From Eledone cirrhosa (lineage: Eukaryota): DNA of 64,000 bases. Of the stretch, positions 14,439 to 16,530 are shown in pieces; position 1 is the stretch's first letter, and each line of letters begins with the position of its first letter. The notes below the pieces were generated by a model. That model searched no databases and had not been told where the DNA came from. It saw only the letters and a program-made list of their open reading frames with translations. Where the stretch lies: positions 178,064,001-178,128,000 of the forward strand of contig OZ024742.1 in the NCBI GenBank assembly GCA_964016885.1, given 5' to 3'. The position numbers and the translations under genes were made by a program.

Positions 14439-14913
14439 ATATTTGAAAAACTCAGATTACACACATATATGTATATATATATGTATATATATATATATAT
14501 ATATATGTGTGTGTGTGTGTGTGTGTGTGTGTGTGTATTTATATATATATATATATATATATATATATATATATATATATATATATATATATATATATAT
14601 ATATATATATATAAATTGAAACAAAATGAAAACGAAATTTCATTTCTCACTCTTAGTATGGCACTTACTTAAATGTAAGTATGCATGTATACGTACATAC
14701 ATATATGCATACAGACGTACAGTAGCATGCACATATATATATATATATACATATATACATACATATGCATACAGGTACACATACATATATGCACGTATCA
14801 GTTTAGCGGCGCTAACGTCGCTTTGTTCGTTTGTAAACAAACTGAACAGCCTGAATTTATGCCATACGGTGTTAAGGCAACCACGTCACCTTTTTGTTCA
14901 ACACTGACACAGG

Positions 14914-14954
14914 AACGATGTACTAGTTTCAAGCTTGTTAGCTATCATCAGCAC
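14914..14954 (-). ncRNA. Hammerhead ribozyme, inverted copy with shortened stem I
   Basis: Minus strand: GTG-CTGATGA-TAGCTAACAAGCTT-GAAA-CTAG-TA-CATCGTT. Confidence 0.75.
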
Positions 14955-15055
14955 AGTGAAAATTAACGGCTTATGAAAATTAACGGCTGCTCAGCCGTTA
15001 ATTTTCATAAGGAAAGTATATACTTTCGAACGTTCAACTATCTGGCAGATGGGTA

Positions 15056-15100
15056 AACGGTGCTGATGATAGCTAACAAGCTTGAAACTAGTACATCGTT
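15056..15100 (+). ncRNA. Minimal type I hammerhead ribozyme
   Basis: AACGGTG-CTGATGA-TAGC-TAACAA-GCTT-GAAA-CTAG-TA-CATCGTT. Intact core, GUA cleavage triplet, palindromic ACTAGT stem III. Confidence 0.9.
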
Positions 15101-15521
15101 CCTGTGTCAGTGTTGAACAAAAAGGTGACGTGGTTGCCTTAACACCGTATGGCATAAATTCAGGCTGTTCAGTTTGTTTACAAACGAACAAAGCGACGTT
15201 AGCGCCGCTAAACTGATACGTGCATATATGTATGTGTACCTGTATGCATATGTATGTATATATGTATATATATATATATATGTGCATGCTACTGTACGTC
15301 TGTATGCATATATGTATGTACGTATACATGCATACTTACATTTAAGTAAGTGCCATACTAAGAGTGAGAAATGAAATTTCGTTTTCATTTTGTTTCAATT
15401 TATCGTTTTCGGTATGCCTGACCGATTTAACTCACTCAATATGCAAATTAGGCTGCTCAGCCGTTAATTTTCATAAGGAAAGTATATACTTTCGAACGTT
15501 CAACTATCTGGCAGATGGGTA

Positions 15522-15566
15522 AACGGTGCTGATGATAGCTAACAAGCTTGAAACTAGTACATCGTT
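15522..15566 (+). ncRNA. Minimal type I hammerhead ribozyme (second tandem copy)
   Basis: Identical to 15056-15100, 466 nt downstream. Confidence 0.9.
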
Positions 15567-16530
15567 CCTGTGTCAGTGTTGAACAAAAAGGTGACGTGGT
15601 TGCCTTAACACCGTATGGCATAAATTCAGGCTGTTCAGTTTGTTTACAAACGAACAAAGCGACGTTAGCGCCGCTAAACTGATACGTGCATATATGTATG
15701 TGTACCTGTATGCATATGTATGTATATATGTATATATATATATATATGTGCATGCTACTGTACGTCTGTAGAGTGCTACTTATCCGATATTTGCATTGCC
15801 TTATTGTGCTACAATAAAACTGTGCGTGTGTGTGTGTGTGTTTGTGTGTGTGTGTGTGTGTGTGTGTGTGTGTGTGTGTGTGTGTGTGTGTGTATGTGTG
15901 TGTGTGTGTGTGTGTGTGTGTGTGTGGGTGTGTGTGTGTGTGTGTGTGTGTGTGTGTGTCATCGATCAATATATATTTGGCTGTTCAACCTAACGTAGTT
16001 GGAGTTTATTGTGCGCTATAAATGCATCAGTGTATATCGGGAACGGAAAGGAAATAATAAGAAAACCACAGTGTGTCGTCTGTACTTTTAAATTCTCTTC
16101 AATTCCTCTTCCATTTCACAATGAATTCATTTCTTTATTTTAAAATATTACATTTTCTATTTCTTATCATACTGTGTACTATTGTAAATCAGTCTTTTTA
16201 CATTTACTGCTGCTGTTGTCAGTAACATTAGAACATTACTTCTACACACAAGCCTACACACATGCTCAAACATATACACGTATTCAAATATACACACAGA
16301 CATGCAGACATAAATACACATGCACTTGCGGACACATACACATATATATACACACACATACCCACACAAACACACACAAACACACACATACACGTACACA
16401 TACACACACACACACACACATATATATATATATATATATATATATATATATATATATATATATATATATATATATATATATATATATATATATATATATA
16501 TATATATATATATATATATATATATATATA

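Follow-up and report, generated by a model that had tools for sequence, protein, structure and literature searches.

Organization of the locus

The window, by which we mean the whole 64,000-nt stretch of Eledone cirrhosa DNA that was analyzed, carries at 14611–15770 a two-armed insertion built from a 466-nt repeat unit (GC 36%), an ordinary and slightly damaged copy of a dispersed family. Comparison of the window with itself yields an exact direct repeat of 320 nt at an offset of 466 nt (14985–15304 = 15451–15770) and, on its left, an inverted copy, in which 14611–14957 mirrors 15057–15403 over 347 nt with one mismatch. Positions within the unit are numbered such that u1 is 15094. The features are as follows:

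14465–14613: (TA)n/(TG)n microsatellite at the boundary of the left arm, the likely target site (repeat scan and long ends of the family)
14611–14957, minus strand: left arm, inverted u430–466 and u1–310, ending at the family's long fixed end u310 (self-comparison)
14921–14951, minus strand: third hammerhead core, on the inverted arm (motif scan; coordinates mirror-mapped from 15063–15093)
14957–14988, minus strand: arm junction with two short fold-backs (15 and 19 nt), reverse complement of 14993–15011
14985–15770, plus strand: right arm, u358–466, the full 466-nt unit 15094–15559, then u1–211 (self-comparison)
15042–15110, plus strand: extended stem I with the distal helix CTGGCA (15042–15047)/TGTCAG (15105–15110) (predicted fold)
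15056–15100, plus strand: type I hammerhead 1, predicted cut after 15093 (motif scan and variant alignment)
15212–15335, plus strand: (TA/TG/CA) microsatellite, a predicted long hairpin (predicted fold)
15338–15403, plus strand: 'tail' between the short fixed end (u245–251) and the long fixed end (u310)
15441–15448, plus strand: octamer ATGCAAAT within a 23-nt motif common to a neighboring hammerhead family
15522–15566, plus strand: type I hammerhead 2, predicted cut after 15559 (motif scan)
15771–15821, plus strand: 51-nt 3' piece of a different hammerhead-bearing repeat family (genome copies)

A preceding sequence-only reading had described all of 14611–15770 as a 466-nt tandem unit. This holds for the direct repeat at 14985–15770, but 14611–14957 is an inverted arm with a third hammerhead core, whose stem I is weakened because its 5' strand is changed by the arm junction. 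Position 15770 is not a family end; it is a join to the other repeat at a shared CTGTA (15766–15770), and the 51-nt foreign piece stands in place of the expected short end and (TA)n flank. The first 24 nt of this piece have 1,852 exact copies in the genome and are preceded by CTGTA in five of six loci read; the join may have arisen by a later deletion or by a template switch. Since the right end joins another element, the 1.7-mer form of the repeat, which had been taken as a sign of reverse transcription around a circle, says little on this question.

An antisense ATG frame of 112 codons spans the microsatellite of the unit. It has no Pfam match and is shifted in its reading by family indels such as +1, −1 and −7. 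Neither the list of open reading frames nor Pfam revealed a frame with reverse transcriptase (RT) and GIY-YIG domains within the unit or adjoining it. The microsatellite at 15212–15335 holds most of the A>G marks discussed below, and u213 is G in each arm of the window copy (15306 and 14708). We infer that the boundaries of the tail are start sites of reverse transcription.

The 23-nt motif around the octamer is identical to that of the neighboring hammerhead family at 20 of 23 positions (E=0.09), and ATGCAAAT may be an snRNA-type promoter element. It is reminiscent of newt satellite 2, whose promoter includes an octamer. Newt satellite 2 is, in the accessible parts of the papers, a hammerhead-bearing tandem repeat that needs dimers and has a reported snRNA-type Pol II promoter (PMC2220036, PMC7229834).

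The window holds several other repeats. The neighboring hammerhead element, also two-armed, occupies 13966–14437, with its core on the minus strand near 14114 and two octamers upstream; its core pattern has 1,427 genome matches, and it is this element that shares the 23-nt motif. Further hammerhead-like motifs lie at 27422–27778, 29881–30266, 39657–39787 and 39963–40497, near 31473 (minus strand) and near 59789 (plus strand), and three of them sit in inverted two-armed elements of other families. A LINE unrelated to the retrozyme (18793–24186, minus strand) comprises a 635-residue first frame, an endonuclease frame (PF03372) and an 874-residue RT frame (PF00078), with a second 3' piece at 24772–25254 (minus strand). 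A dispersed repeat of about 115 nt (~13850–13970), probably a SINE, has many copies of 84–94% identity within the window, and 25432–26191 and 26510–27179 consist of degenerate 12-, 30- and 42-nt tandem repeats and a long (AAC)n-rich array.

The hammerhead motif and its predicted fold

Each unit carries a motif that would form a type I hammerhead, as expected of a metazoan non-LTR retrozyme. Its stem I (AACGGUG/CAUCGUU) is followed by the core CUGAUGA, a stem II (AGC/GCU) on a U-U mismatch, GAAA, and a helix III of one A-U pair capped by a palindromic CUAG loop. The two motifs noticed earlier, 466 nt apart with predicted cuts after 15093 and 15559, were recovered at 15056–15100 and 15522–15566 on the exact 320-nt repeat, and the observation of a tandem hammerhead repeat is confirmed. 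Because helix II begins with U-U in place of G-C, and helix III is a single pair with a CUAG cap, a dimeric hammerhead fold is plausible. When two copies are co-folded, the palindromes pair, yet the full active fold is not reached.

In Rfam, the hammerhead motifs have no match at the gathering score; Hammerhead_HH9 reaches 18.5 bits of the 52 needed (E=0.29). Rfam matches to microRNAs were rejected as microsatellite noise. The monomer folds with z = −7.0, a large share of which comes from the microsatellite hairpin. Among 16 family variants, 94% of cells in the hammerhead structure are paired and two pairs are changed on both sides; as these variants were hand-picked and are related to each other, this is modest support for conservation of the structure. 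Between subfamilies, the core differs at the free position 7 only. For the distal stem I helix CTGGCA/TGTCAG, which had been proposed from the letters, the picture is mixed: it is present in the minimum-energy fold and kept in all 16 variants, but without a double-sided change.

A dispersed family with two fixed ends

The 3.0-Gb genome, in which the window occupies C3:178064001–178128000, contains 10,739 exact copies of a 30-nt hammerhead motif and none of the reversed control, so chance does not account for the motif, and the alternative of a single-locus sequence is refuted. For the young subfamily to which the window copy belongs, exact matches number 862 for the long end on (TA)n and 4,734 for the read-through junction. 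Two classes of outer end, each followed by (TA)n, were already apparent among the 54 loci collected first. Short ends lie within u242–251, with clusters at u245, u248 and u251, and long ends at u310, which gives two fixed outer end sites about 60 nt apart. Among loci L121–L180, 58 long ends lie at u310, nearly all followed by (TA)n. As (TA)n adjoins both end classes, the target is a microsatellite, within which target duplications are unreadable.

We examined 60 young loci, namely 40 consecutive entries of the list of long ends, which thus have one long end by selection, and 20 mostly multi-unit loci taken by hand from the lists of long ends and of junctions. Simple two-armed insertions, in which an inverted, 5'-truncated copy stands head-to-head with the other arm, make up 37 of the 60: 33 with one short and one long end, one with two long ends, none with two short ends, and three with one unclassed end. 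Nineteen loci are one-armed and four complex. In 7 of the 37 two-armed loci, both arms pass the cut site at least twice, and young arms pass it up to 15 times. The expectation of dispersed, circularly permuted multimers is thus borne out as to dispersal; contrary to what a simple circle model would predict, however, the copies are not randomly permuted, but have two fixed ends and form head-to-head pairs, the footprint of PLEs (Penelope-like elements).

The two-armed layout is no assembly artefact, since contigs from independent public runs reproduce it: in contigs from two additional studies the sequence likewise ends at 15403 and gives way to (TA)n, and many arm-to-arm joints occur in three runs made from a single sample. 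An older branch of the family on C14 (25.07–25.39 Mb; L207–L210, L214) is organized as satellite blocks, in which some ten units make up a higher-order repeat.

Relation to retrozymes and Penelope-like elements

Judged by its testable features, the family is at once a metazoan non-LTR retrozyme and a non-autonomous Penelope-like element (PLE), and the kind of element is already known. Published systems are cited here from the accessible parts of the papers. With metazoan non-LTR retrozymes (Cervera and de la Pena 2020, PMC7229834; Li, Clavereau and Pollet 2026) it shares non-coding tandem units with one type I hammerhead each, thousands of copies and a strongly self-paired predicted fold, so that filing it as retrozyme-type, as had been done before, is sound. 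Its helix III, with one pair and a palindromic tetraloop, resembles that of axolotl HHR_Amex1, and the U-U at the base of helix II that of HHR_Amex2. At 466 nt, the unit is longer than the 170–400 nt given in PMC7229834, but within the 51–972 bp given in 10.64898/2026.07.22.740005. In contrast to this family, published retrozymes are not described, in the accessible text of these two papers, as two-armed insertions with two fixed ends and (TA)n targeting. Conversely, circles and cleavage are demonstrated for published retrozymes (PMC7229834), with RtcB ligation in coral, mussel and axolotl and PLEs proposed as the mobilizer, whereas the present family is known from the genome sequence. In Xenopus, descent of retrozymes from pseudo-LTRs (pLTRs) has been argued, but only one of nine dimers was cleaved in vitro (10.64898/2026.07.22.740005), a point against a template cut by the ribozyme. 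Plant LTR retrozymes carry type III hammerheads in their LTRs and differ from the type I motifs in tandem units seen here.

EN+ Neptune-type PLEs (PMC8557442, PMC3846280, PMC11167929, PMC4209133) resemble the family in forming partial tandems, in having a head-to-head partner copy that is inverted and 5'-truncated, in bearing a tail at just one end and a hammerhead with a palindromic helix III, and in targeting microsatellites. The family differs from them in lacking an open reading frame, in its tail of about 60 nt compared with the cited 30–40 bp, and in showing no clear homology to any autonomous pLTR that was fetched. Non-autonomous Chlamys PLEs such as MRC1 (PMC8557442) are likewise non-coding, multicopy head-to-tail insertions moved by PLE enzymes, but hammerheads are absent from most of them, and as a rule they have 3' sequence in common with a known partner. 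The accessible part of a study on Octopus vulgaris repeats (PMC13282606) describes active Penelope families and does not mention ribozymes. Our literature search, which reached a minority of subscription journals and no supplements, returned nothing on retrozymes of cephalopods or on retrozymes inserted as two arms; novelty may depend on the model figure in PMC7229834 and on the tables of 10.64898/2026.07.22.740005.

Probable mobilization by a Penelope-type enzyme

In a genome scan for GIY-YIG domains, 150 of 10,596 candidates were scored. Long frames encode an RT followed by a GIY-YIG domain (Pfam), with a cysteine motif between them, and we read these elements, by the description in PMC8557442 rather than from a tree, as probably of Neptune type. 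Four such families have two alternative end sites before (TA)n. One element, L074, has two arms whose ends belong to different classes and lie 60 nt from each other, with (TA)n 123 and 183 nt after its hammerhead. The tails of this genome's own PLEs, measured by eye, span 37–65 nt. Because autonomous PLEs share the end footprint of the family, we regard it as a non-autonomous, Penelope-mobilized metazoan non-LTR retrozyme; that a Penelope-type enzyme moves it is very probable. This agrees with the tail-and-inversion pattern of PLE insertions (PMC8557442, PMC3846280) and with an anole PLE, in which two internal start sites of reverse transcription delimit the tail and both strands of the target are extended (PMC11167929); in vitro, insertion by this PLE did not need cleavage, which weighs against the need for a ribozyme-cut template.

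The partner enzyme is a presumed one, because BLAST found no pLTR homologous to the unit among about 45 fetched GIY-YIG loci (of the 10,596 candidates). At best, the tail shows a weak, out-of-register similarity to one Neptune-type family (p=0.006, uncorrected, with seven regions tried). Matches resembling the family beside L055, L071 and L072 were rejected as a link to a partner, as they are separate insertions beyond the (TA)n ends of these elements. In the Neptune-type 3' regions of L061, L073 and L034, the ribozyme-like motifs have UUGA-N-AA in place of CUGA-N-GA and a palindromic ACCGGU helix III; this is the U3-A8 swap reported for Schistosoma PLEs (PMC4209133).

The template: circle, multimer or monomer

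As to what the enzyme copies, we lean towards an RNA circle as the main template. Both arms of an insertion carry the same marks: the u163 marker agrees in every one of the 22 pairs that could be classified, and 10 of 24 pairs match over their entire modal microsatellite string (null mean 2.2, p=1e-4). In L217 (C3:191.724 Mb), whose arms contain four and six full units, all ten are 467 nt long and bear the same two changes, a rare haplotype whose diagnostic motif has 12 genome matches, 11 of them in L217 and one on another background. G32T has 61 matches, and L155 is the one array among them that carries it throughout, in five of five units of both arms. In L161 (C1:184.445 Mb), five of five junctions lack 7 nt, a deletion placeable at u460–466 and thus flush with the cut site; of the 13 shortened hammerheads in the genome, its five form the only array, and the six in a control window are all single. 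The L161 scar, like each fully private two-arm case, comes from one locus.

Variants that occupy a whole insertion are biased, with 13 A>G and one T>C among 18, a count that omits 15 cases of the common G163A marker and in which some cases rest on two units. Single-unit variants comprise 31 A>G and 23 T>C among 171 (Fisher p=0.013 for the contrast). Cephalopods have strong RNA editing, and the bias fits A-to-I editing on the ribozyme strand.

The same data bear on an account to which we give a minor, though real, chance: a Penelope-type enzyme mobilizes a linear multimer transcript that has not been cut, and the hammerhead either is weak or plays an incidental part; array length stems from the source and from unequal DNA exchange, and no circle is needed. 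Such a template explains clean read-through of the cut site equally well, and the anole PLE used unprocessed RNA in vitro (PMC11167929). It would also account for sub-lineage variants that occupy whole arrays at many loci. A386G (103 matches, about 25 loci), A357G (18 matches, five loci) and A213G (565 matches) were at first candidates for private variants, a reading that we rejected because they are sub-lineage or recurrent marks found genome-wide. Being shared between loci, they reveal no bottleneck per insertion, and since the A>G marks tested are not private, daughters can be uniform because their source array was. Periodic variants (period 6 in L188, period 3 in one arm only of L192, period 3 in L196 and L199), together with the C14 satellite, demonstrate that arrays lengthen by block duplication at the DNA level. 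The period-3 marks of L196 and L199 were considered as traces of a trimer circle, which was rejected in favor of DNA duplication, as a second mark has period 6 and is missing from unit 2. In L122, one three-unit pattern is repeated in both arms, and L123, L125, L167 and L219 contain mixed units, which fits multimer templates at least sometimes.

Against a linear multimer, a change originating in one unit of the RNA can come to occupy all units of both arms, as in L217 and L155, only by way of a single unit. The A>G bias is a further sign of an RNA stage, and the L161 deletion at the cut site has no source elsewhere in the assembly. Moreover, reverse transcription can only shorten a linear array, which is hard to reconcile with young arms that cross the cut site as many as 15 times.

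Considerably less probable is a cut linear monomer, on which the enzyme reaches the 5' end and jumps back to a 3' end, either of that monomer or of a different one. Inner arm ends are indeed more frequent just after the cut site than before it, with 13 in u1–30 and 3 in u437–466 among 92 arms (p=0.02; excluding complex loci and one locus with an N gap), and mixed arrays could be jumps between molecules. The plus arm of L161, moreover, stops at u4, which is not predicted by a circle with a dead ribozyme and counts against the circle. However, the contrast shrinks to 8 versus 3 among the 59 arms that extend past a junction, and u4 is a CGTT site; CGTT at u369 also collects three ends. As both sites are CGTT, microhomology can explain the excess after the cut site, and the pile-up is a hint only. 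Length changes across the cut site, 13 shorter and 23 longer against about 10,860 (~0.3%), are no more frequent than in the control window (6 shorter, 19 longer). Since they are so rare, the template was continuous at the cut site, which argues against repeated end-to-end jumping. At L221 (C2:212096553), one junction is altered at the cut site, with four letters replaced by nine unrelated ones, and at L201 (C4:102108907) one junction has a 6-nt deletion there; both are possible scars of ligation or jumping.

That the arrays are solo pLTR fragments of an autonomous Penelope-like element, a plain satellite or an assembly artefact is very improbable and largely refuted: although 5'-truncated, inverted pLTR fragments are usual for PLEs (PMC8557442) and the old branch on C14 has turned into a satellite, the units stand head-to-tail without an open reading frame at thousands of junctions, no fetched GIY-YIG locus uses the unit as its pLTR, and the independent contigs speak against an artefact.

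Proposed mechanism

Returning to the circle, we consider it reasonably likely that the family is a non-coding hammerhead repeat inserted in trans by a Penelope-type RT/endonuclease, which copies a cut and re-ligated RNA circle from both sides of the break. Following such a route, a tandem array would be transcribed, and its hammerheads, probably acting as dimers, are predicted from the motif to cut the transcript into 466-nt monomers, which would then be ligated into circles. A Neptune-type enzyme, presumed from the observed footprint, would cut (TA)n and prime from both DNA ends, at u245–251 and u310. Each cDNA would cross the cut site between 0 and 15 times before stopping, after which the inner ends of both would be joined, often at short microhomologies; here the layout is observed and the mechanism conjectural. 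Unequal exchange, visible in the periodic variants, later reshapes long arrays.

A more specific version, to which we assign an even chance, has a pair of Penelope-type enzymes, each primed from its own side of a single (TA)n break, running repeatedly around one cut, ligated and sometimes A-to-I-edited circle. L161 would then be the fossil of a mis-ligated circle that had lost 7 nt at the cut and was copied five times, and L217 a single molecule copied about eleven times in two directions. The earlier interpretation of the locus as a circular-RNA retrozyme is thus partly supported.

Implications

Mobilization of animal retrozymes by PLEs via circular RNA is, in the accessible text of the cited papers, a proposal rather than a demonstrated route (PMC4209133, PMC7229834). 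The present family displays the footprint of the enzyme at hundreds of very young sites and defines two likely start sites to within a few nucleotides, and the L161 and L217 variants make the circle model testable. It also supplies both template and target, ready for use, to the in vitro assay already available for Penelope.
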